Shown: in pieces, positions 1,478-14,364 of the stretch
Layout of the letters: every line of letters starts with the position of its first letter
Position numbering within the stretch: the stretch's first letter is position 1
Assembly (NCBI GenBank): GCA_963805625.1
Contig: CAWDVE010000024.1
Coordinates: 96,001 to 160,000 of the forward strand
Direction of reading: 5' to 3'
DNA: 64,000 nucleotides
DNA from: an uncultured Candidatus Rokubacteria bacterium
GTDB taxonomy: Bacteria; Methylomirabilota; Methylomirabilia; Rokubacteriales; DASRDR01
Position numbers and translations under genes: made by a program
The notes under the pieces: model-generated
The model's database searches: none
Told to the model about the DNA's origin: nothing
The model's input: the letters and a program-made list of their open reading frames with translations, nothing else

Positions 1478-2551
1478 ATGGATTCCGGCGAGACCGACGC
1501 AGATCGAGGGCGCCTCGGGGGTCTGCAGGATGCCTTCGACCAGGCGTGGCGCGCTGCCGAGGCACGTCGCGAGTCGCACTACGTCTTGCTCGGTCGGCCC
1601 GTGCGCATCCGCATCGCCGGCGGCGCCCTAGCGGCCCACATTCATGAGGCCTTCGCGCACCTGAGCGCGGGCGCAACCGTGGACGCGCCCCGCCTCACGG
1701 TCGACCTCTGGGACGTGCGGGAGACGGGCGTGCCCGTTCCCGACGACGGGGTGCGCTGCGTGGGCGAGCAGACCTGGGGGCCGGCCGAGGACCGCTTTGC
1801 CGCCACTCACGATCGGCGCGTCGTCGGCACCCACCTGCCCGGCAGCGGCGCGTGGCTCGACCGGCGCGCCGGGCACGCGATCGGCTGGTTCGCGGACGGC
1901 GATGGCCTCACGACGCACGAGCGGAGCAAGCCGCTCTACGCGCTGCTCGCTGTCTGGGCCAGCGATCGCGGCGTCCACGGCGTTCACGCCGCGCTGGTCG
2001 GCCGCGATGGGAGCGGGGTGCTGGTCCCGGGCGGTAGCGGTGCGGGGAAATCGACGGTCGCCCTCGCCTGCCTCTGCGCAGGGCAGACCTACTTCGGCGA
2101 CGACTGGATCGGACTCGCCCGCGTCGGCGACGTCTTCGAGGGCTACGGGTTCTATGGCGCCGCACTCCTGGAGGCACGCCACGCCACGCGTTTCCCGCTG
2201 CTCCAGCCCCACATTGTTCGCCCTCCGGGCCCAGGCGAGGGGAAGGCGCTCCTGCCGCTCGCGAGCGCGTTTCCCGAGCGGCTCGGACATTCGACGCGCG
2301 TGCGCGCGCTGGCCCTGCCACGCATCGTCGCGAGGTCGGGGACGCGGGTTGGCCCCGCCTCGCCGCGCGAGGCGCTGCTGACGCTCATGCCCAGCTCGGT
2401 CTTCATGATGCGGCCCCGCGGTGGACGCGCCGGAATCGAGCGCCTGGCCCAGCTCGCCCGCGAGCTCCCAGCGTACTGGCTCGAGATCGGCAGCGACCTG
2501 GACGACATCCCCCGAGGCGTCGACGAGATCCTGGTGCGCGCGACGACGTGA
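1478..2551 (+). CDS. HPr kinase-related P-loop kinase
   Basis: VHAALV, Walker A GGSGAGKST, and YFGDDW (DD motif of HprK-like kinases). Start chosen at ATG 1478. Confidence 0.8.
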   Translation: MDSGETDADRGRLGGLQDAFDQAWRAAEARRESHYVLLGRPVRIRIAGGALAAHIHEAFAHLSAGATVDAPRLTVDLWDVRETGVPVPDDGVRCVGEQTWGPAEDRFAATHDRRVVGTHLPGSGAWLDRRAGHAIGWFADGDGLTTHERSKPLYALLAVWASDRGVHGVHAALVGRDGSGVLVPGGSGAGKSTVALACLCAGQTYFGDDWIGLARVGDVFEGYGFYGAALLEARHATRFPLLQPHIVRPPGPGEGKALLPLASAFPERLGHSTRVRALALPRIVARSGTRVGPASPREALLTLMPSSVFMMRPRGGRAGIERLAQLARELPAYWLEIGSDLDDIPRGVDEILVRATT

Positions 2552-3708
2552 ACCGCCCTTGGCCCGACGGCCTGTGTCTCCTGCTACCGACCTCGGAGGA
2601 GACTGATCTCCTGCGCGCCTGCTTGTGGTCGGGGCCGGGGGGACGCGAGGCCTGGGAGCGGTGGCAAGGGCGTGTGGGCGGGGTGCGCCGGGGGCTCGGC
2701 GACGAAGCCGTGAAGCCGTTGCTCCCGCTGCTCTATCACGCCGTGCGCCGGAACGAGCTCGCGGTCGAGCCCCGCGTGCGCACCACCCTCGGCGCGGCGG
2801 TGCTCGCGGAGACGCTCCGGAGCGCGACCTACCAGCGGATCTGCGCGCGGGCCTGTGCGGCCGTCGAGGGGGCCTCCGTTCCGTTCCTCGTGCTCACGGG
2901 CGCGGCGCTGGGGGACACCGTCTATCCCGCAGGGGCGCTCCGGCACTCGCACGACGTCGACCTGCTCGTCGAGGCGCGCGACCTGGACCGCGCCACCGAG
3001 GCCCTGCGGCGTGGCGGCTTCACGCTGGTTCCCGGCCGGTGCGCGGACCCCGAGCAACGGGAGCTGCGCGACGAGTCCGGCCTCCCGATCCAGCTTCACT
3101 CCCGCCTGTTTCCCGTGCGCTACTACGCCATTGCCCTGGACGGCATCCGGGCCCGGGCCCAGGTCTCTGCGATCGCGGGCCGGCGCGTGCCCACGCTTTC
3201 CGCGGCCGACCACCTCGTGCACGTCTGCGGGCTGGCTGCCTGCGCGGGCCGCGGTCGGTCGCTGAAGTGGGTGTTCGACGCCTGGTACCTCATCGCCCGG
3301 CACCCTGAGCTGGACGGCCAAGCCCTTCTCCGGATGGCGTCCGATGCCCGCGTCGTGCTGCCGCTGACCGTGCTCCTGGGCTACCTGGCCGATCAGCTCG
3401 AGGCCCGCCTGCCGAGCCAGCTGCTCGCCGGGCTGGCGGCCGCCGCCGCGAGGACCGATCGGACCGCGCGCGAAGTCGCCCTGTTCGGGGTGCGTGCCGG
3501 CGGCCGGGGGACGCTTCGCAACCTCTGGCGGGCCACGCGCAGCTGGCGCGACGGAGCGGATCTGGTCCGCTGGATGCTCGTGCCGACGCCCGCCAGCTTG
3601 CGATTCGGCTGGCGGTTCCATGATTCTCGGCCCGTGGCCGCCGGCTATGTCCTGCGGCCCCTGTCCTACCTTCTGCGCCGCCTCGGATCGTGGCGGGGCG
3701 CCGCCTAG
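2548..3708 (+). CDS. Nucleotidyltransferase family protein (NTP_transf_5-like)
   Basis: FLVLTGAALGDTVYPAGALRHSHDVDLLV matches the LKG...YP...R...DxDLL signature, with K replaced by T. GTGA overlap with the kinase gene. Confidence 0.8.
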   Translation: MNRPWPDGLCLLLPTSEETDLLRACLWSGPGGREAWERWQGRVGGVRRGLGDEAVKPLLPLLYHAVRRNELAVEPRVRTTLGAAVLAETLRSATYQRICARACAAVEGASVPFLVLTGAALGDTVYPAGALRHSHDVDLLVEARDLDRATEALRRGGFTLVPGRCADPEQRELRDESGLPIQLHSRLFPVRYYAIALDGIRARAQVSAIAGRRVPTLSAADHLVHVCGLAACAGRGRSLKWVFDAWYLIARHPELDGQALLRMASDARVVLPLTVLLGYLADQLEARLPSQLLAGLAAAAARTDRTAREVALFGVRAGGRGTLRNLWRATRSWRDGADLVRWMLVPTPASLRFGWRFHDSRPVAAGYVLRPLSYLLRRLGSWRGAA

Positions 3709-3838
3709 GCGCGGGCCATGGTGGCCGTCGCCGGCGGCTGACGGCGGCCGGGGACCCCGCCTGCCGGTGCCGTCCAAGGTGAATGAGGGAGGCTACGAAT
3801 CGCAGTATCATGCAGGTCGACGTGCACAGGAGGTGGCG

Positions 3839-4291
3839 ATGCTGACGAACGACACTCGCCTGCGTCCGAACGACGCCGAGGTCGCGGCCGAGGTGATGGA
3901 TGGTGAGGCGATTCTGATCAACCTCGCCACCGGCGCGTACTACTCCATGGACAAGGCCGGCGGGCTGGTCTGGCAGTCGATCCAGCAGCACTGCTCGCTG
4001 GAGGAGATCGCCCAGCGGCTCACCGGCAGCTACGCCGTCTCGATCGAGCAGGCGCGCGCCGACGTGACCCGGCTCGGGTCCGAGCTGCTGGAAGCGCACC
4101 TCGTCACGGTCTCGACGGATGCCGCCCCCAGCGGTGATGCGTACGTCCCCCCGCCCGAGCGGCTGCTCTACGAGTCACCCACGGTGTCGGCTTACAGCGA
4201 CCTGCGCAACCTGCTCGCCCTCGATCCCCCGATGCCGTCCCTGGAGACCCTCCAGATCGAGGATCCGAGACGGGGGCCGTCCACCGCATGA
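3839..4291 (+). CDS. PqqD/RRE-family protein with C-terminal YxxP leader-like extension
   Basis: AGGAGG RBS; RRE fold DGEAILINLATGAYYSMDKAGGLVW...IAQRLTGSYAVSIEQARADVTRLGSELLEAHLV; tail YESPTVSAYSDLRNLLALDPPMP...PSTA. Confidence 0.85.
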   Translation: MLTNDTRLRPNDAEVAAEVMDGEAILINLATGAYYSMDKAGGLVWQSIQQHCSLEEIAQRLTGSYAVSIEQARADVTRLGSELLEAHLVTVSTDAAPSGDAYVPPPERLLYESPTVSAYSDLRNLLALDPPMPSLETLQIEDPRRGPSTA

Positions 4292-4298
4292 TTGGCAC

Positions 4299-5045
4299 GT
4301 GACCGGCGCCCTGGTGAGCTGCGTCGTCCCCGTGTTTAACGGGGAGCGCTACCTGCGGGAAGCGCTCGACAGCATCCTGGCCCAGACCTATCGGCCGCTG
4401 GAGGTCGTCGTGGCGGACGACGGCTCGACCGACAGCACGGTGGAGATCGTGGCTGGCTACGCCGACGCCGTGCGCTACGTCCGACAGGACAACGCCGGTG
4501 CCCCGGCGGCCCGCAACCTCGGTCTCGATAACGGGCGAGGTGACTTCATCGCCTTCCTCGACGCCGACGACGTCTGGCACCCGGAGAAGCTGGCCCGGCA
4601 GATGGCGCGCTTCGACGCGCGCCCCGACCTCGATCTCTGCGTCACCCACCTGCAGGCGTTCTGGATCGCCGAGCTGAAGGAGGAGGCGGCGAGATTCCGC
4701 GATCACCCACTGTCGGGGCCGCTGCCCGGGTATTCCACGGTGACCCTGTTGGCGCGACGCGCGCTGTTCGAACGGGTCGGCCGCTTCAACGTCGCGCTGA
4801 GCGTCGGCGATCCCATGGAGTGGTTCCTTCGTGCCGCCCACGAGGGCGCGGTGATGGAGCTGCTGCCGGAAACCCTTGTGTACCGGCGCATGCACCAGCG
4901 GAACCTGTCGTGGGATGTCGACGAAACCCGGCGCATGACGACGGCGATGCAGGCCTCGGTTCTACGGGTGGTGAAGGAGTCGCTCGATCGCCGGCGCCGC
5001 GAGGGATCGGCGGTGCGCGCCTACGACATCCCGGGGCCTCGATGA
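4299..5045 (+). CDS. Glycosyltransferase family 2
   Basis: VSCVVPVFNGERYL, DDGSTD, ARNLG, FLDADD motifs; GTG start. Confidence 0.9.
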   Translation: MTGALVSCVVPVFNGERYLREALDSILAQTYRPLEVVVADDGSTDSTVEIVAGYADAVRYVRQDNAGAPAARNLGLDNGRGDFIAFLDADDVWHPEKLARQMARFDARPDLDLCVTHLQAFWIAELKEEAARFRDHPLSGPLPGYSTVTLLARRALFERVGRFNVALSVGDPMEWFLRAAHEGAVMELLPETLVYRRMHQRNLSWDVDETRRMTTAMQASVLRVVKESLDRRRREGSAVRAYDIPGPR

Positions 5046-5176
5046 GCCGGGCCCTGGTGAGCTGCGTCGTCCCCGTGTTCAACGGGGAGCGCTACCTGCG
5101 GGAAGCGCTCGACAGCATCCTGGCCCAGACGTATCGGCCGCTGGAGGTCGTCGTGGCGGACGACGGCTCGACCGAC
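4308..5176 (+). repeat. Near-identical ~125 bp direct repeat at the 5' ends of the two GT2 genes (4308-4433 and 5051-5176)
   Basis: GCCCTGGTGAGCTGCGTCGTCCCCGTGTT...GACGACGGCTCGACCGAC occurs twice, with only two synonymous mismatches seen. Confidence 0.9.
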
Positions 5177-5764
5177 GGCTCGGCGGCGGCGGTGGCCGCC
5201 TACGGTGACCGGGCGCGCTGGCTGAGCCAGCCCACGGCGGGGCCGGCCGCGACGCGCAACCTCGGCCTGCGGGCCGCCCGCGGGGAGTTCGTCGCGTTCC
5301 TCGACGCCGACGATCTCTGGCATCCGGAGAAGCTGTCGCGCCAGGTCGCGCGCTTTGCGGCGCTGCCGGAGCTCGGCGTCTCGGTGACCCATATTCAGAA
5401 CTTCTGGATCGCCGACCTGGTGGAGGAGGCCGCGCGGCTTCGCGACGATCCGCGCGCAGGCCCGCTTCCCGGATACGTCACGATGACGATGATGGTGCGC
5501 CGGACGCTGTTCGACTCGGTCGGGCCGTTCGATGAATCCCTGTGGCACACGGACGCCGCCGACTGGTTCGTGCGCGTCGCCGCCCAGGGCGTCGTGATAG
5601 AGATGCTGCCCGATGTTCTCGCCCACCATCGCATGCACCGCACCAACCTCAGCCGCCGGATGGGGCCTGGCTCGCGCCGGGAGTTCGTGGGCATGGTGAA
5701 GCGGTCGCTCGACTGGCGACGGCGCTTCGGTGAGCCGGCGCCTCCGTTCCTGGCCTTCGACTAG
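5042..5764 (+). CDS. Glycosyltransferase family 2 (paralogue of the preceding gene)
   Basis: Same GT2 motifs; ATGA overlap with the upstream stop. Confidence 0.9.
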   Translation: MSRALVSCVVPVFNGERYLREALDSILAQTYRPLEVVVADDGSTDGSAAAVAAYGDRARWLSQPTAGPAATRNLGLRAARGEFVAFLDADDLWHPEKLSRQVARFAALPELGVSVTHIQNFWIADLVEEAARLRDDPRAGPLPGYVTMTMMVRRTLFDSVGPFDESLWHTDAADWFVRVAAQGVVIEMLPDVLAHHRMHRTNLSRRMGPGSRREFVGMVKRSLDWRRRFGEPAPPFLAFD

Positions 5765-5787: not shown

Positions 5788-6903
5788 GTGCGGGTCCTCG
5801 TGTGGCAGGAGCCCTTCGGCCCTGGGCGCGGCGGCGTGCACACGATGGCGGAAGCGCTGCTCCCGGCCCTGCGGGGACGCGGTCACGACCTCGCCGTCGT
5901 CTCCCGACAGGACGCGACCGACGGCCCGCAGCGGGGGATGTGGAAAGGGATTCCCGTCTACCGATTCCCGCTCTGGCAAGCCCTCGAGAGCGCTGATCCC
6001 GCAGCGATCATGCGATGGCGACGCGAGATCGAGCGGCTCGAGCGCGACTTCGCGCCGGAGCTGGTTCATCTCAACTCCTTTGGTCCGACGGCCCTCTATC
6101 ACCTGGAGGCGAGGCGGGCCGCCCCCCCGCCGCTCCTCGTCACCCTCCACTCGTCGAACGTCTTGGTCCCCGGCTCCGCGACCGTGCTGCGACGGACCCT
6201 GCGGGCCGCCAGCTGGACGACCGCATGCTCGCATGCGCTACTCGCGCAGGCCCGACGGGTGGCCCCGGAGATCGAGGCGCGGTCGTCCGTCATCCACAAC
6301 GGCGTCGATCCTCCGGTCGGCGCGCCCTCGCCGCTTCCGTTCGACGAGCCCCGGGTGCTCTGCCTGGGTCAGCTCGCCCCCCACAAGGGGTTCGACCTGG
6401 CCATCCGAGCCTGCGCGGTGGTCCGCGCCCGATTTCCACGGTTGCGGCTGATCGTCGCCGGGGAAGGTCCGGCGAGGCGCGACCTGGAGGCGCTGGTCGA
6501 GCGGGAAGGCCTCGGCGCCGCGGTCGACTTCGTCGGCCGCGTAGCGCACGCCGATGTGCCAGAGCTCCTCGACACCGTCACGCTGGTCGCGCTGCCGTCG
6601 CGGCGCGAGGCGTTCCCACTCGTCGCGCTCGAGGCCGCGGTAATGGGCCGCCCAGTCGTGGCCGCTCGCGTCGATGGGCTGCCCGAGGCCGTGGCCGACC
6701 GGGAGACTGGCCTGCTGGTGGACCCGGAGAGCCCGGTGGCGCTCGCCGCGGCGATCACGTTCCTCCTGACCCACCCCGACGCGGCCGTGGCCATGGGCGC
6801 GGCCGGGAGGCGCCGCGCCGCGCGGGAATTCGGGCTGGCGCGGCACGTGGACGCCTACGATAGGCTGTACCGGACGCTGCGGGAAGGGCCGGTGCCGGGA
6901 TGA
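5788..6903 (+). CDS. Glycosyltransferase family 4 (GT-B)
   Basis: GQLAPHKG and PSRREAFPLVALEAAVMGRPVVA (EX7E) motifs. Confidence 0.9.
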   Translation: MRVLVWQEPFGPGRGGVHTMAEALLPALRGRGHDLAVVSRQDATDGPQRGMWKGIPVYRFPLWQALESADPAAIMRWRREIERLERDFAPELVHLNSFGPTALYHLEARRAAPPPLLVTLHSSNVLVPGSATVLRRTLRAASWTTACSHALLAQARRVAPEIEARSSVIHNGVDPPVGAPSPLPFDEPRVLCLGQLAPHKGFDLAIRACAVVRARFPRLRLIVAGEGPARRDLEALVEREGLGAAVDFVGRVAHADVPELLDTVTLVALPSRREAFPLVALEAAVMGRPVVAARVDGLPEAVADRETGLLVDPESPVALAAAITFLLTHPDAAVAMGAAGRRRAAREFGLARHVDAYDRLYRTLREGPVPG

Positions 6904-7712
6904 AGACCATCGACAACCTCGAGATCCACCTCGTTCACAGTTGTAATCTGGCTTGCGAGGGCTGCTCGCACTATTCCAACCAGGGACACCGGGGGATGAT
7001 CTCGCTCGAGGAAGCGGACGCCTGGATGCGTCAGTGGAACCGGCGGGTGAGCCCGCGCACCTTTTCGCTGCTGGGGGGCGAGCCCACGATTCATCCGAAG
7101 CTCGTCGACTTCGTGTCCCTGAGCCGCCGGAACTGGCCCGAGGCGCGGCTCCAGCTGGTGACCAACGGCTTCCTGCTAGACCGGCATCCGGACCTGCCGG
7201 TCGTCCTCGGCAACGACCCGAATGCCTGCATCTCGCTCTCGATCCATCACGCCTCACCGCAGTATCGCGACCGGCTCCTGCCCGTCGTCCGGCTCCTCGT
7301 CGAGTGGACCCGCCGCCACGGTGTGCAGATCGACTTCCGGCCATCCCACGGAAGCTGGACTCGCCGGTACAAGGGGTTCGGGGCCTCGATGGAGCCCTTC
7401 GACGACGGCCGGCCGCGGGAGAGCTGGGAGCGCTGCCCGGCGAAGTACTGCAAGCAGCTGTTCCGGGGCGAGTTGTGGAAGTGCGCCCCGATCGCCTATC
7501 TGCCGATGCAGCACGCGAAGTACGGGCTCTCCGCAGCGTGGAAGCCCTATCTCAAGTACAAGTCGCTGGCGCCCGGCTGCACGGACGAGGAGCTCTCGGC
7601 GTTTCTTGCCCTAGAGGACGAGTCCTGCTGCCGGATGTGTCCGGCCGAGCCGGAGCGCTTCGAGATGCCGCTGCCCTTCCCGTCTCGCGCTTTCGTCCGC
7701 ACGCCCCGATAG
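6900..7712 (+). CDS. Radical SAM protein with Cys-rich C-terminus
   Basis: CNLACEGC (CxxxCxxC), GGEPT, TNG; C-terminal C..C..KC..CCRMC; ATGA overlap. Confidence 0.9.
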   Translation: MKTIDNLEIHLVHSCNLACEGCSHYSNQGHRGMISLEEADAWMRQWNRRVSPRTFSLLGGEPTIHPKLVDFVSLSRRNWPEARLQLVTNGFLLDRHPDLPVVLGNDPNACISLSIHHASPQYRDRLLPVVRLLVEWTRRHGVQIDFRPSHGSWTRRYKGFGASMEPFDDGRPRESWERCPAKYCKQLFRGELWKCAPIAYLPMQHAKYGLSAAWKPYLKYKSLAPGCTDEELSAFLALEDESCCRMCPAEPERFEMPLPFPSRAFVRTPR

Positions 7713-9663: not shown

Positions 9664-12600
9664 CTAGCGCCGGTGGACGAGCGACACCGCCGCCACCGAC
9701 CCCTCTCCGTGGCACACTTCACAGGTCTCGATGTTCCCCAACGTGTTGATCGCCGCGTGCGTCGCCGCGATCACCGAGTCGTGGCACGTGAGGCACGCAT
9801 CCGTAATCGGCAGGATGCTGCCCGTCACCGTCTCGGTCGACGGCGGTGTCACCTGGCTCAGCCGAGTCGGTAGGAGGTTCGACGGGAGCGGCAGCAGCTG
9901 GCTGCCATTCACGTGGCACGTCGCGCAGTCCCTTCGGTCCCCCGGGAAGCGGATCTCGCTGAAGTCGTGCGCCGTGTAGTTCTGCGGGGCCGATCCGAAG
10001 CCGTACACGATGTACGGCTTGTTCTCGAGTTCCTCTCCGGTGTGAACCTTGTGGAGCAGGTGCTTCAGGTTGATGGGCTCATTCGCGAGGTCTGGGCTCG
10101 GGGTCCCGGCCTGAGTCTGGCCATAGGTGTAGGCATTCACGCGGCGCGTGAAGTCGCTCACGTTCGGGTTGTGGCAAATGACGCAGTGGTTCGTCTGGTT
10201 GCGTGAGCCTCCGTGCACGGCGAAGCCCTGCGAGAAGACCCCGTGGCACTGCTGGCAGTTGCCGATCGCCACCACCGTGCGCCGAGGCACCACGGGCGAG
10301 CCGTCCACGCTGAAGTCCCGCACCGGGTTCTGAGCGAACTCGGTGACGGTGGTGGGGCCGCCGACCAGGTTGACGTTGGCGACCGCGCGGCGGGCTTCAA
10401 GCCCGACGCGCCAGGTTCCGGTGGCATCTGCCGGCAGCTTGTTCGCGCCCGTCGTCGTGAACGTGAAGGCGTCGACGCCGTCGAACACGGCACCCGTCAC
10501 GTTCTGACTGAGCATGGGCGCGGAACTACCGCCGAAGTCGGTTGTGGGCCCGCTGGCCCTGAGGCTGATCGTGCCGATCGGAGCGGAAAGGCTGGTGATC
10601 GGGCTGTTATCATCGCCGTTCTTGAGACGGAATTTGACCGTGATGCCGTTCCCGGGGGTCCCCGACGCGTCCAGCAGCTCGGCGACGAGCCCCCGCAGCT
10701 GCAGCGACTGCTGGGGAATGGTATGGGCCCCGGTCACCGAGACGGTCGCCTCGTTGGCCACCGTCCCGTCTCCGGGCGTGTGGCAGCCGGCGCAGGCCGC
10801 CTCGGGCGCGGCGCCGCCGCCGTGGGGCTTGCCGTTGCTCTTGAACCCGGCCGGAATTGTCCCGAGGTTCGACTGGGGCGGTGTCACGATGTCCGCCGTG
10901 CTCGGGTTCACGTCGTCGTGGCATCCGGTGCAGGCGGGTGTCGACGGCAGGGTTCGGAACGTGTGCGCGGTGGCCCCGCCGGTGTGGCACTTGGTGCAGT
11001 TCCGGACGTCCTGCGGGAAGCCCACCCCCGTCACCGCCGTCCCGGTGCAGGTGCCGGTCCCGCAGTCGGGGTCACCGGTGCAGGGCGCGCCCTCCTTCGG
11101 GCCCAAGACGCAGACGTTGATCTTCTCGGAGAACACCGTGTTCCCGACGGCGAACTTGGTGCCCACCGGGCCGGCCACGACCGACGGAAGCTCCTTGCCG
11201 CGGTGGATCTTATGGATCATCACCCTGAAGTTGAGGCTGCCCGCGTCGGGATCGACGAGCTGTTCCGTATGGCAGAGCATGCAGAGGCGCACTTCGCGCC
11301 GGCCGCCCCCGTGGACCGCCAGAGGGTTGTGGCACTCGTTGCACGCCGCCGTGGACACCGGCTCGCGCTGAAGGGTCAGCGCGCTCCTCCCCGGATTGCA
11401 GGCCACCCAGACCCCGCCGGTGAAGGCGGGGTTATAGGCGAAGAAGGAGCCGATGGGTCCGGGGACCTCAAGGCCCGTCGCGCCGTCGAAGGCGCGGACG
11501 TGGGGGCCGCCGCCGGGCCCGGCGCCCGTCACCACGTCCAGGATTCCGTCGCCGGTTAAGTCGCACGCCGCGACCTGTACGCCCCCGGTAAACGTCGGGT
11601 CGTAGGCCCACAGTTCGAGACCGGCCGCCGTCCCGAGGCCGGTGAAGCCCCGGACGTGAGGGCCGCCGCCGGGCCCGGCGCCGGTGATGATCCGGGCCTC
11701 CGTCGAGCCCCGGAGGCTCCCGCATGCGACGAACACCCCGCCGGCGAATGCGGGGGCGTAGGCCAGGAAGGTCGACAGCTGCTGCGCCGGATTCTGTCCG
11801 TTGAACACCGTGACGCGCGGCTCTCCGCCGGGCCCGGCGGCCGTCACGATGTCGGCCCGCCCGTCGTTGTTCACGTCGCACGCCGCGACCCGCACGCCGC
11901 CGGTGAAGGCGGCGTCGAAGGCGAAGAACGACGCGACTTCGGCGCCGGTCTTGCCGTCGAACGCGCGGACATGGGGGCCGCCGCCCGCGTCGGCGGCGGC
12001 GATCACGTCCGGCGTGCCGTCCCCGGTGACATCGCCGCACGCCACGAATACGCCCCCGGTAAAGGCCACATCGAAGGCCATGAACGACCCGATCGGCCCG
12101 GGCAGCACCGCCCCGGTCACTCCGTCAAAGGCCCTGACGTGGGGCCCCCCGCCCGGGCCGGCGCCGGAAACTACATCGACGACGCCGTCACCGGTCAGGT
12201 CGCACACGGCCACGCGCGCGCCGCCGAGGAAGGCAGGGCTATAGGCGAAGAAGTCGCCCGGCGTCCCGGGGAGCGGCAGACCGAGGACGCTGTTGAAGCC
12301 GCGGATGTGAGGCCCGCCCCACGACCCGGCACCGGTCGTCGGGCGCCCGTCGGGCACGAAATCGAAGATCGGGTTTGCAGCGAGGCGCCCCCCGTCAAAG
12401 AACCGGTCGACCTGCCCTCCGATCGTGTGAACCAGGGCCGCGGACCCGGGAAAGGGCGCCGGCAGCGTCCTGCCGAAGGTGTATCGGTAGGTGCCCGTGC
12501 CCTGATCCTCGAGCAGGAAGCTCCCGCCCGTATCGAAGGTCGGCTCTCCGGACGCGTTGAGGAGGTAGTTCATGTAGCGCGTGAACTGGACGGTGCTGGC

Positions 12601-12900
12601 GCCGTCCGTCTGCTCGTTGACCTCCAGCCGCGCGATGGCGAAGCGGACCCGGGCCAGGACGGGGTCAGAGGCGGACGAGACCGCACTTGCGGTGGGCGTG
12701 AGGGGGACGCCGGCCGTGTCGGTGAGGGTGAACCTCACGCTCGCGATCCCGGTGTCGCTCACCGAGGCGGCCAGGATGGCCACCTCGAGGCCGGGTCCGG
12801 GGAGCGGCACCGGCGGCGCGCTCGCGCTCTGGAGAAAGCCGAGGATCAGGACCAGAAGAACGGAGGGAGTGACCGTCTGAACGCCCTTCGGACGCCGCAT
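9664..12900 (-). CDS. OmcA/MtrC-family decaheme c-type cytochrome with an inserted six-repeat FG-GAP-like domain
   Basis: Ten CxxCH motifs in two groups of five (CNECH, CMLCH, CTKCH, CTGCH, CAGCH / CQQCH, CVICH, CATCH, CLTCH, CEVCH); HGGxR and MIHKIH/LLHKVH motifs typical of MtrC; signal peptide ending ASA. Confidence 0.92.
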   Translation of the reverse strand: MRRPKGVQTVTPSVLLVLILGFLQSASAPPVPLPGPGLEVAILAASVSDTGIASVRFTLTDTAGVPLTPTASAVSSASDPVLARVRFAIARLEVNEQTDGASTVQFTRYMNYLLNASGEPTFDTGGSFLLEDQGTGTYRYTFGRTLPAPFPGSAALVHTIGGQVDRFFDGGRLAANPIFDFVPDGRPTTGAGSWGGPHIRGFNSVLGLPLPGTPGDFFAYSPAFLGGARVAVCDLTGDGVVDVVSGAGPGGGPHVRAFDGVTGAVLPGPIGSFMAFDVAFTGGVFVACGDVTGDGTPDVIAAADAGGGPHVRAFDGKTGAEVASFFAFDAAFTGGVRVAACDVNNDGRADIVTAAGPGGEPRVTVFNGQNPAQQLSTFLAYAPAFAGGVFVACGSLRGSTEARIITGAGPGGGPHVRGFTGLGTAAGLELWAYDPTFTGGVQVAACDLTGDGILDVVTGAGPGGGPHVRAFDGATGLEVPGPIGSFFAYNPAFTGGVWVACNPGRSALTLQREPVSTAACNECHNPLAVHGGGRREVRLCMLCHTEQLVDPDAGSLNFRVMIHKIHRGKELPSVVAGPVGTKFAVGNTVFSEKINVCVLGPKEGAPCTGDPDCGTGTCTGTAVTGVGFPQDVRNCTKCHTGGATAHTFRTLPSTPACTGCHDDVNPSTADIVTPPQSNLGTIPAGFKSNGKPHGGGAAPEAACAGCHTPGDGTVANEATVSVTGAHTIPQQSLQLRGLVAELLDASGTPGNGITVKFRLKNGDDNSPITSLSAPIGTISLRASGPTTDFGGSSAPMLSQNVTGAVFDGVDAFTFTTTGANKLPADATGTWRVGLEARRAVANVNLVGGPTTVTEFAQNPVRDFSVDGSPVVPRRTVVAIGNCQQCHGVFSQGFAVHGGSRNQTNHCVICHNPNVSDFTRRVNAYTYGQTQAGTPSPDLANEPINLKHLLHKVHTGEELENKPYIVYGFGSAPQNYTAHDFSEIRFPGDRRDCATCHVNGSQLLPLPSNLLPTRLSQVTPPSTETVTGSILPITDACLTCHDSVIAATHAAINTLGNIETCEVCHGEGSVAAVSLVHRR
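11390..12335 (-). repeat. Six intragenic FG-GAP/beta-propeller-like repeats
   Basis: Repeated GxGGGPHVRxF...F(F)A(Y/F)xxxFxGG(V)xVAxC(D)xxxDG units. Confidence 0.85.
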
Positions 12901-13008
12901 ATGCACCTCCACGCGACCGGCGAAGAAGTCAGCCCCAGCGTTCCCGGCGAGCCATGCGAGCGGACCTCCCTGCCGGATGCATCGCGATCCCGCGGCGCAG
13001 GCCAGGTT

Positions 13009-13065
13009 AGTGTCTTCCAGACTCTCGTACTCTGTCAATGGTGCGAACTAATGATGCGAACTAAT
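13009..13065 (-). promoter_or_regulatory. Candidate sigma70 promoter with an adjacent 11-bp direct repeat, upstream of the cytochrome gene
   Basis: Minus-strand TTGACA (13038-13033), 18 nt spacer, GACACT; TGCGAACTAAT repeated at 13042-13052 and 13055-13065. Confidence 0.5.
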
Positions 13066-13566
13066 CAGACGACCCCGAGTTCGAGCGTGCAACGGGGTCA
13101 CAAGCTCATGATCGGTCGTGGAACGGGGTGTGTCAGCGGTCCACGTCGAGGCGTACCTCAGTCAGCCTGCGCACCGTAGATAGGCAGCTCGTCCAGGAAG
13201 AGCACCCCCCAGGTGGGCCAGGCTGACCTCGCCGGGATGCGGCGGCCGGCCTCCCACCCACGAGTCCCGCGGCCGAGACCGTGTGGTGCGGGGTCCGGAA
13301 CGGTCGCCGCGTTCCGAGGCCTTTCGGGCACCGGCGTCTGCGGCTACTCGAACAGGCCGGCCTGCTCGGGTTGTCAGGGGTGGGGCGCTTCAACCTGGAG
13401 CTCCTGGGTCAACCTGGCGAGGCCTCGGGCGGTCAAGGTCGTGGGGCCCGGGCGCCGTGGGCTGTGAGAGGCGTGGCCGCCGAACTGAGAAAGCCCACGT
13501 TTCGAGATCGAACCAGGTGGTATTGGCCGGGTTTCGCCACGATGATCTCGGGGATTCGCTTGGAAT

Positions 13567-14364
13567 CTAGTGGCCCGCGCCCTTCGTCGGGAGGGCCTGC
13601 CGGTCAACGTCGCGCTCGAGGTCGGCAGCGGGTCCCCTCCGTAGGAAGACCTGGCGGAGGCCGAAGTAGGCGAAGGCGTCCTTGAGGTTGGAGGCGAGCC
13701 GCTTCACCGGGTGCATCGAGGGATCGGTCACGTACTCCAGCGTGAGGCTGACGCGCTCCTCGCCCACGCCAAGGGGCGTCACCGCGTGCCACAGCCGGTC
13801 GCCGTTGAACAGGATGAACGTGCCGGGGTGCGTCGCCAGCGCCAGTTCCACCGGCGCCCGCCCCGGGTCCTTCTTGTGGAGCTGGCAGACCAGGCGGCTG
13901 GACGAGCGCTCAAGCAGCCCCACCAGCACCGTGTAGCGGGCGCCGCGGTAGTAGGACGTGTCGAAGTGGAAGCCGATGTGGTCGCCCGGCTCCGTGTAGA
14001 AGTAGAGGGCGCAGGCGTGTGGGTCACAGGGTGGGCACGGCTGCAGGCGCGCGCCTGTCAGGGACTCCAGGAACGCGATGAAGGGGAGCGTACGGTAGAG
14101 CGCCAGGATCGTGGGCGCCCGCTCGACCAGGGTGTGGAAGCTGACGCTGCCGCCCTTCTTGTGGCGGGGGATATAGCTGCGGCTGATGGCCGGCCGCACC
14201 GACTCGATCTCGGCCACCATGCGTGCCACCACCGGGGCCGGCAGCCAGCGCTCGAGGTGGACAAACTCGCCCTGCTCCTGGTACGTGCGGCGGAGCGCGT
14301 CCACGTCCACGCGCGCAACGGCCTCGGCCACCGCCTCGGCCACCGACGTCGTCGCTTCGTTCAC
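13567..14364 (-). CDS. 2OG-Fe(II) oxygenase
   Basis: HIGFHFD (HxD), WHAVTP, distal R in ERVSL. Confidence 0.85.
   Translation of the reverse strand: MNEATTSVAEAVAEAVARVDVDALRRTYQEQGEFVHLERWLPAPVVARMVAEIESVRPAISRSYIPRHKKGGSVSFHTLVERAPTILALYRTLPFIAFLESLTGARLQPCPPCDPHACALYFYTEPGDHIGFHFDTSYYRGARYTVLVGLLERSSSRLVCQLHKKDPGRAPVELALATHPGTFILFNGDRLWHAVTPLGVGEERVSLTLEYVTDPSMHPVKRLASNLKDAFAYFGLRQVFLRRGPAADLERDVDRQALPTKGAGH

Follow-up and report, generated by a model that had tools for sequence, protein, structure and literature searches.

The described systems closest to the cassette reported here are the clusters for linear polyphosphorylated peptides (LPPs) in Bacillota (Popov et al. 2026, PMC13381572) and those for phosphorylated or phosphoglycosylated lasso peptides, namely the pseudomycoidin (PMC6993621) and Bsf (PMC10368454) clusters, as set out in the accessible text of those reports. 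LPP precursors carry the motif YxxPxVLxHQxIxFETxxS, in which LppK phosphorylates the Ser at Tyr+18, and in the LppB crystal structure Asp70 hydrogen-bonds the leader Tyr (PMC13381572). BsfK is assisted by an RRE and acts near the end of the leader, at Tyr+19 (PMC10368454). The characterised kinases of the LppK/BsfK type use Ser/Thr hydroxyls and reject Tyr variants, and the characterised pairs of an RRE and an HprK-like kinase modify a peptide bound to the RRE (PMC13381572, PMC10368454). In the pseudomycoidin pathway, PsmN is needed for addition of a hexose onto the phosphate (PMC6993621).

Here we examine a gene, in a 64,000-nucleotide stretch of DNA (the window) from an uncultured Candidatus Rokubacteria bacterium, that encodes an RRE and a leader-like tail in a single protein. 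This gene and its relatives resemble the LPP clusters, as these are described in the accessible text, in a lasso-type RRE with a putative Tyr-binding Asp, a YxxPx[LV] leader, an HprK-like kinase, an NTP transferase (uncharacterised in LPP), the lack of a cyclase, glycosyltransferase-rich surroundings and a candidate acceptor register of Tyr+18 (PMC13381572). An MsbA-like ABC exporter, frequent in LPP clusters, has a possible counterpart in the ABC ATPase-type matches near some of the genes. With the pseudomycoidin PsmK/PsmN and Bsf BsfK/BsfB1 systems they share the RRE, the kinase catalytic motif and the PF14907 enzyme (PMC6993621, PMC10368454).

The RRE-tail gene and its neighborhood

An earlier note on this DNA had described an RRE, a linker and a YxxP tail within one ORF at 3839-4291, and this observation is confirmed. 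The gene, its parts and the genes around it are listed with the evidence for each.

1478-2551, plus strand: HprK-like kinase with the His, Walker A and DD motif; start by inspection, open frame from 1370
2548-3708, plus strand: NTP_transf_5 nucleotidyltransferase (PF14907, PsmN-like); DxD kept, LTG instead of the commoner LKG
3828-3834, plus strand: ribosome-binding site AGGAGGT, 4 bases before the ATG (sequence)
3839-4291, plus strand: RRE-tail fusion gene, 150 aa (ORF, Pfam, homologue alignment)
3857-4111, plus strand: PqqD/RRE domain of lasso B1 type, residues 7-91 (Pfam PF05402, Foldseek, profile matches)
4061-4063, plus strand: Asp75 codon; aligned to LppB Asp70, covaries with tail position 111
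4112-4168, plus strand: variable linker, residues 92-110 (alignment)
4169-4219, plus strand: leader-like segment Y111-A127, YxxPxLxxYxDMxxLLA (conservation, AlphaFold)
4220-4288, plus strand: core-like segment L128-A150, conserved LDPPxP, then variable (conservation)
4223-4225, plus strand: Asp129, candidate acceptor (conservation)
4299-5045, plus strand: small soluble GT2 glycosyltransferase (family scan)
5042-5764, plus strand: second small GT2 glycosyltransferase (family scan)
5788-6903, plus strand: GT4 glycosyltransferase (family scan)
6900-7712, plus strand: radical SAM protein, accessory (family scan)

The ORF ends in a stop codon at 4289-4291. Pfam PqqD covers residues 23-89 (E 2e-14; 54 bits against a cut-off of 23.4), and the linker (residues 92-110) reads STDAAPSGDAYVPPPERLL, with YESPTV beginning exactly at 4169. 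Linker length varies from 18 to 24 residues and is 19-20 in 108 of 121 aligned proteins. The best Foldseek matches of the modelled protein are lasso B1-leader complexes (TbiB1/TfuB1), the closest being TbiB1 5v1v/5v1u and 6jx3 (E 4e-5 to 1e-3), and profile matches of the RRE domain are 9x90, 5v1u and 9x8z.

In an AlphaFold2 model built from 121 sequences, with pLDDT and secondary structure taken as evidence, residues 1-90 (pLDDT 94-98) are predicted to adopt the winged-helix RRE fold. Confidence is again high over residues 111-120 (93), drops to 63 at 121-130, and falls to 54 and 45 in later blocks. The tail is modelled with a strand at 117-119 and a helix at 122-126. Because 111-120 is an ordered stretch flanked on both sides by poorly ordered sequence (the linker and the end of the protein), we infer contact with the groove: residues 111-120 are predicted to lie in the RRE groove, leaving 121-133 free for enzymes. 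A paralogue of the DPIH subtype (see below) yields the same strand, with pLDDT 90 at 111-120, 58-70 in the linker and 53-55 at the tail end. The earlier note had expected YESPTV to form an extra strand on the RRE; such a strand is predicted, but it is placed at 117-119, just past YESPTV. Asp75, invariant in the 121 proteins, aligns with LppB Asp70, and D38 aligns with LppB N33, so that by alignment both pocket residues of a YxxP-binding RRE appear to be present. With docking predicted by AlphaFold and covariation between the tail and the Tyr-binding Asp (described below), the tail very probably binds the RRE of the same gene product, as had been claimed. The covariation and the monomer model fit binding in cis and a swapped dimer alike.

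Upstream of the RRE-tail gene in the window lie the kinase, which keeps H170, G185, K191 and a DD pair (D208/D209) at BsfK spacing, and the PF14907 gene; two GT2 genes, the GT4 gene and the radical SAM gene lie downstream. We fetched 78 related loci from GTDB genomes and counted neighbors within 6 kb in the 50 with 5 kb or more of flanking sequence to either side. GT2 enzymes were found in all 50, the kinase in 45, PF14907 in 43, GT4 in 31, ABC ATPase-type matches in 11, Asn-synthase-like proteins in three and lasso B2 in none. In the DPIH subtype, where 33 loci were examined and 19 were well covered, those 19 had the kinase and GT2 throughout, PF14907 in 15, ABC ATPase-type matches in eight and GT4 in six. 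The scanned genes of the window operon include no such ABC match of the MsbA-like exporter kind, and no homologue of the radical SAM protein was found in the 78 GTDB loci. The other recurring neighbors are of glycan type: an epimerase, an ABC-2 permease, a flippase, a sulfotransferase and a GT-D-like protein.

Genes for peptide release or cyclization are scarce in this company. No peptidase family was found in the 22 of 26 recurring neighbor clusters that were scanned, five of which matched no family at all, and the window operon has no SipW-like (SpI) leader peptidase. A tblastn search for the B2 peptidase (PF13471), with a single query of limited reach, gave 0/78 and 0/33 loci, and the single PF13471 match of the bacterium's own genome is on contig C16. 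An Asn-synthase-like cyclase is absent from the contig of the window gene (C24) and from the 19 DPIH loci. No separate precursor recurred in 61 loci, where small YxxP ORFs amounted to 67 non-recurring sequences, more of them on the opposite than on the coding strand. The other YxxP precursors of the genome lie on other contigs, beside RREs of their own.

Conservation, distribution and covariation of the tail

The bare motif YxxPx[LV] does not exceed chance, since shuffling the last 60 residues 100,000 times produced these six residues in 8.7% of cases. Its conservation among relatives, by contrast, is beyond chance. In an alignment of 121 proteins (the window protein and the best 120 of 456 homologues of similar length), the tail has the near-invariant consensus YxxPxLxxYxDMxxLLALDPPxP, which retains the pattern YxxP..Y.D...LL.LDP picked out from the single sequence. 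Y111, D121, L126, A127, L128, D129, P130, P131 and P133 are invariant in 121/121, and P114, L116, Y119, M122 and L125 are conserved in at least 90%. The mean frequency of the most common residue is 0.69 in the RRE, 0.39 in the linker, 0.78 over residues 111-127, 0.94 over 128-133 and 0.27 over the last nine residues. An unconserved tail with no predicted binding had been named as the outcome that would sink the idea; the tail is conserved in the 121 proteins and residues 111-120 are ordered by AlphaFold.

At E values up to 0.001, a 33-position profile of the tail, built from 93 tails of both subtypes, matches 2,991 clusters at 50% identity; 687 are still matched at 1e-10 or below. Among the best 150 matches, 109 have a full RRE and 19 a partial one. 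Most of the remaining 22, in which no RRE was detectable, start in the last strand or the linker; they include one spurious 3,353-aa repeat protein and one protein with an unrelated N-terminus. Where at least 85 residues are available upstream, an RRE is present in all but one of 333 motif-bearing segments. Candidate stand-alone tail peptides were rejected: the seven short matches all lie on contigs of 0.6-1.1 kb, and a 64-aa frame in the relative G001 is immediately preceded by RRE-coding sequence interrupted by frameshifts. Scans of 93 tails against Pfam and NCBIfam found no model covering them, giving one weak PqqA match (E 0.03) and one unrelated match, and a search of the ESM Atlas returned nothing beyond unnamed PqqD-family clusters.

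The MAGs behind the GTDB loci carry the labels Methylomirabilis, Rokubacteria, Gemmatimonadota, Deltaproteobacteria, Gammaproteobacteria, Acidobacteriota, Bacteroidetes, Planctomycetes, Chloroflexota and others. Among relatives the gene is patchy, with 9/41 and 8/151 searched genomes carrying it, the bacterium's own included. One of these genomes has up to five copies, each with its own kinase nearby (three fetched in addition to two). A degenerate DNA scan of metagenomes found at least 120 loci of the DPIH subtype. This sample was chosen by a pattern fixing Y119, D121, D129, P130 and H132, so these residues are no evidence within the subtype; Tyr/Phe at position 111 and Asp75 were absent from the pattern. 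A near-invariant D-P is common to both subtypes, as DPPxP and as DP[IV]H[DE]V.

The identity of tail position 111 covaries with that of RRE position 75. In a set of 331 RRE-tail proteins, less 17 rows (9 without Pro at +3 and 8 with neither Tyr nor Phe), Asp75 accompanies Tyr111 in 204/219 tails and Phe in 2/95. Within the DPIH subtype alone the counts are 14/24 with Tyr versus 1/90 with Phe (Fisher 8.5e-11), making Asp75 the strongest of 90 RRE columns, with the next (2.6e-5) five orders of magnitude weaker. The tests within the subtype and on the tree omit four rows with a gap at position 75. The tree, built with FastTree from 114 rows after removal of both trait columns, requires at least 16 changes of one trait and 13 of the other. 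In a Pagel-type fit, dependent evolution of the two is preferred over independent evolution (LR 35.9, df 4), with some rates at their boundaries, and 0/2,316 simulations under independence attained the phi of 0.69 seen in the data; a strict test of independent pairs, underpowered with four or five supported pairs, was not significant. The covariation of Asp75 with Tyr/Phe111 survives two of these three tree-based tests. The pairing of Tyr with Asp, and of Phe with a small residue, extends the known recognition code of RREs.

Acceptor, mechanism and alternative explanations

The genome also encodes two lasso-type precursors whose leaders align with residues 111-127, and Asp129 falls at leader Tyr +18, the register of the LPP phospho-Ser3, at a fixed spacing from the Tyr. 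The tail would accordingly read, by its sequence, as a whole leader plus a short core in which a carboxylate, at the expected register, is the only reactive group to be conserved. The earlier note had envisaged a core containing Ser, Thr or Asp and a C-terminal Ser read by a lasso-type kinase. Only the Asp part of this holds up: position 129 is Asp or Glu in all 79 correctly parsed GTDB tails (Asp 76, Glu 3), and no tail column keeps a hydroxyl residue. A C-terminal Ser/Thr is found in just 26/121 relatives and the GPSTA end is not conserved, ruling out that acceptor; two of the 121 have no Ser, Thr or Tyr at all after Asp129. Tyr119 was likewise rejected as a universal acceptor, as position 119 in the 79 tails is Tyr in 64, Phe in 13 and His in two. 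Because no hydroxyl residue is conserved, the Asp/Glu129 carboxylate is the likeliest acceptor, by analogy, and its phosphorylation would give an acyl phosphate. No other step of the mechanism proposed below is as uncertain. The site is also ambiguous, since Asp121 is as conserved as Asp129 (likewise Asp 76, Glu 3). We know of no precedent for an HprK-like enzyme that forms an acyl phosphate.

The best reading of the gene, towards which we lean slightly and which agrees with the earlier proposal of a fused precursor, is a fusion of RRE and precursor whose conserved, covarying and predicted-docked leader-like tail the neighboring enzymes would phosphorylate and glycosylate. The leader segment would dock in the groove of its own RRE, the HprK-like kinase would phosphorylate a residue shortly after the end of the leader, the PF14907 enzyme would put a sugar (a hexose) on that phosphate, and the GT2 and GT4 enzymes would extend the sugar. 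These catalytic steps are modelled on LppK/BsfK and PsmK/PsmN. No peptide would be released, as a dedicated peptidase is lacking; the pathway would instead yield a small modified protein or a carrier of glycans. Natural-product precursors seldom have an invariant core, and such invariance would suit a docking motif equally well. A more specific version, speculative and as a whole rather unlikely, is a protein-primed glycoconjugate pathway with an RRE-presented tail, an Asp acyl phosphate, a PsmN-like sugar cap and a GT2/GT4 glycan. If this were true, thousands of sequence clusters in many phyla would contain a glycosyl-carrier protein derived from the leader and RRE of a lasso system.

It is also possible, with clearly less likelihood than modification of the tail, that the fused leader fills and stabilizes the RRE, and that DMxxLLxLDP is an unmodified docking motif recruiting or activating the kinase, the nucleotidyltransferase and the glycosyltransferases, which would act on a sugar, a lipid or another protein to make a glycoconjugate. 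The lack of a conserved hydroxyl acceptor in the tail would be expected in that case, as would recurring neighbors that supply glycan genes and no peptidase. Because LppB is insoluble without leader, according to the accessible text, a fused leader could also aid folding (PMC13381572), and PsmN may make the substrate of a host transferase instead of acting on the peptide (PMC6993621). Less easily accommodated are the fixed spacing from the Tyr to an invariant Asp, which matches the LPP acceptor register, and the habit of known RRE and HprK-like kinase pairs of modifying the peptide that the RRE binds.

An auto-inhibitory pseudo-leader, as also suggested in the earlier note, would block the groove until displaced by a precursor encoded elsewhere. 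The tail does hold a complete leader motif, predicted to sit in the groove, and the genome has YxxP precursors on other contigs; however, these adjoin their own RREs, the 61 loci yielded no recurring separate precursor, and the strongest conservation (128-133, 0.94) falls outside the predicted bound segment, leaving the suggestion weak and improbable. More improbable still is a cut at D129-P130 without a dedicated peptidase, by analogy with the eukaryotic GDPH/DPH motifs, with the new C-terminal Asp joined to a glycan: a D-P near-invariant in both subtypes and the lack of a conserved peptidase would agree with it, but E-P replaces D-P in 3/79 tails and the kinase would be left unexplained. That the tail is a chance or vestigial sequence, as the frequency of the six-residue motif in shuffles might suggest, is refuted by a tail more conserved than the RRE, its covariation with the pocket, and its occurrence in 2,991 clusters.

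Relation to described clusters and related loci

By sequence, the combination of RRE, HprK-like kinase and NTP transferase without a cyclase that marks LPP clusters is present, and the cassette may work in a similar way, yet it does not belong among them. Leader and core are here fused to the RRE, whereas the LPP clusters, in the accessible text of their report, have a discrete RRE and a separate precursor; Asp/Glu replaces Ser at Tyr+18, the short core is conserved and not variable, and no SipW-like peptidase is among the recurring neighbors scanned (PMC13381572). GT2 is in every well-covered locus, and the distribution covers many phyla and not just Bacillota (PMC13381572). Membership of the fused tails in the LPP class was rejected on the fusion, the D/E at +18 and the lack of a SipW-like peptidase. 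Unlike the pseudomycoidin and Bsf clusters as the accessible text describes them, the loci have no macrolactam cyclase, B2 peptidase or separate precursor (PMC6993621, PMC10368454), and they have Leu/Ile/Phe at the penultimate-Thr (Thr(-2)) position and no conserved Ser. Membership in the lasso class was likewise rejected, with the cyclase in just 3/50 and 0/19 loci, the B2 peptidase in 0/78 and 0/33, no separate precursor and no Thr(-2). Models of other PqqD and HprK-like kinase pairs, SynChlorMet (TIGR04248/04249) and HPr-rel-A/B (TIGR04352/04355), match weakly and far under their curated cut-offs (kinase 31.8 vs 200, RRE 16.9 vs 100).

In borosin alpha-N-methyltransferases and plant BURP domains, too, a substrate and the protein acting on it are encoded as one; there the fused domain is an enzyme, whereas in the RRE-tail protein it is a non-catalytic recognition element. 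In the literature searched, including the accessible text of the RRE surveys PMC7470986 and PMC12710340, no RRE-precursor fusion or tail motif is described; supplements (also that of PMC13381572) may list such proteins, and the search mostly covered papers outside subscription. The cassette of RRE-tail, kinase, PF14907 enzyme and glycosyltransferases appears to be widespread and undescribed. Genome mining guided by RREs looks for a precursor encoded by a small gene of its own, and clusters without one are passed over. If the missing precursor is the tail of the RRE itself, this would explain many orphan PqqD-kinase-nucleotidyltransferase-glycosyltransferase operons (2,991 clusters). The tail also suggests an HprK-like kinase that acts without a Ser/Thr acceptor, and the RRE-tail protein offers the PF14907 family, whose function is poorly understood, a candidate substrate that can be tested directly. 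A test is practical, since a plasmid of Crinalium epipsammum PCC 9333, a cyanobacterium in culture, bears a copy (WP_232229449.1; CRI9333_RS23855-23875).

The bacterium's own genome has a second RRE-tail gene, at G000:C17:258387-258833 (L080:6387-6833, +), of the DPIH type, with a related tail ending in DPIHDFDETGWP. It combines a Phe leader with Ala at the Asp75 position, and downstream of it lie a kinase, a pair of PF14907-like genes, of which one has a degenerate motif, and GT2s. In the relative G009, L206:4878-5726 (-) encodes a tandem RRE-tail-RRE-tail protein in which W..EP replaces YxxP and the second tail ends GDPIHDV..GWP; a similar variant occurs in L209. L023 has three RRE-tail copies with identical tails (5310-5756, 10751-11197 and 13337-13783), possibly an assembly repeat, and near 7071 (+) in L067 a second RRE without a tail accompanies an RRE-tail gene.

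Elsewhere in the genome, at about 411.4-416.2 kb of G000:C16 (L079:3483-8200, minus), there is a lasso-type cluster with an RRE, a B2 peptidase, an Asn-synthase-like cyclase and an HprK-like kinase. Its two precursor-like ORFs (L079:4427-4960 and 5092-5688) have a YxxPxLxxHG...T leader and a core of ~8-10 residues, and both end in a Peptidase_S74 intramolecular-chaperone domain (Pfam E 1-2e-9), an unusual architecture. Near 73.3 kb of G000:C12, a 48-aa precursor-like ORF (L081:7321-7467, +) directly follows a discrete RRE and has a YxxPxI leader and a Cys- and Trp-rich C-terminus. Within the window itself, the 1,124-aa ORF at 9664-13038 (-), with repeated GGGPHVRAFDG units and several CxxCH motifs, resembles by its sequence a multiheme cytochrome with an inserted repeat propeller. 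At positions 1-900, integrase/transposase-like fragments (345-700 region) interrupt, on inspection, a luciferase-like oxidoreductase gene.
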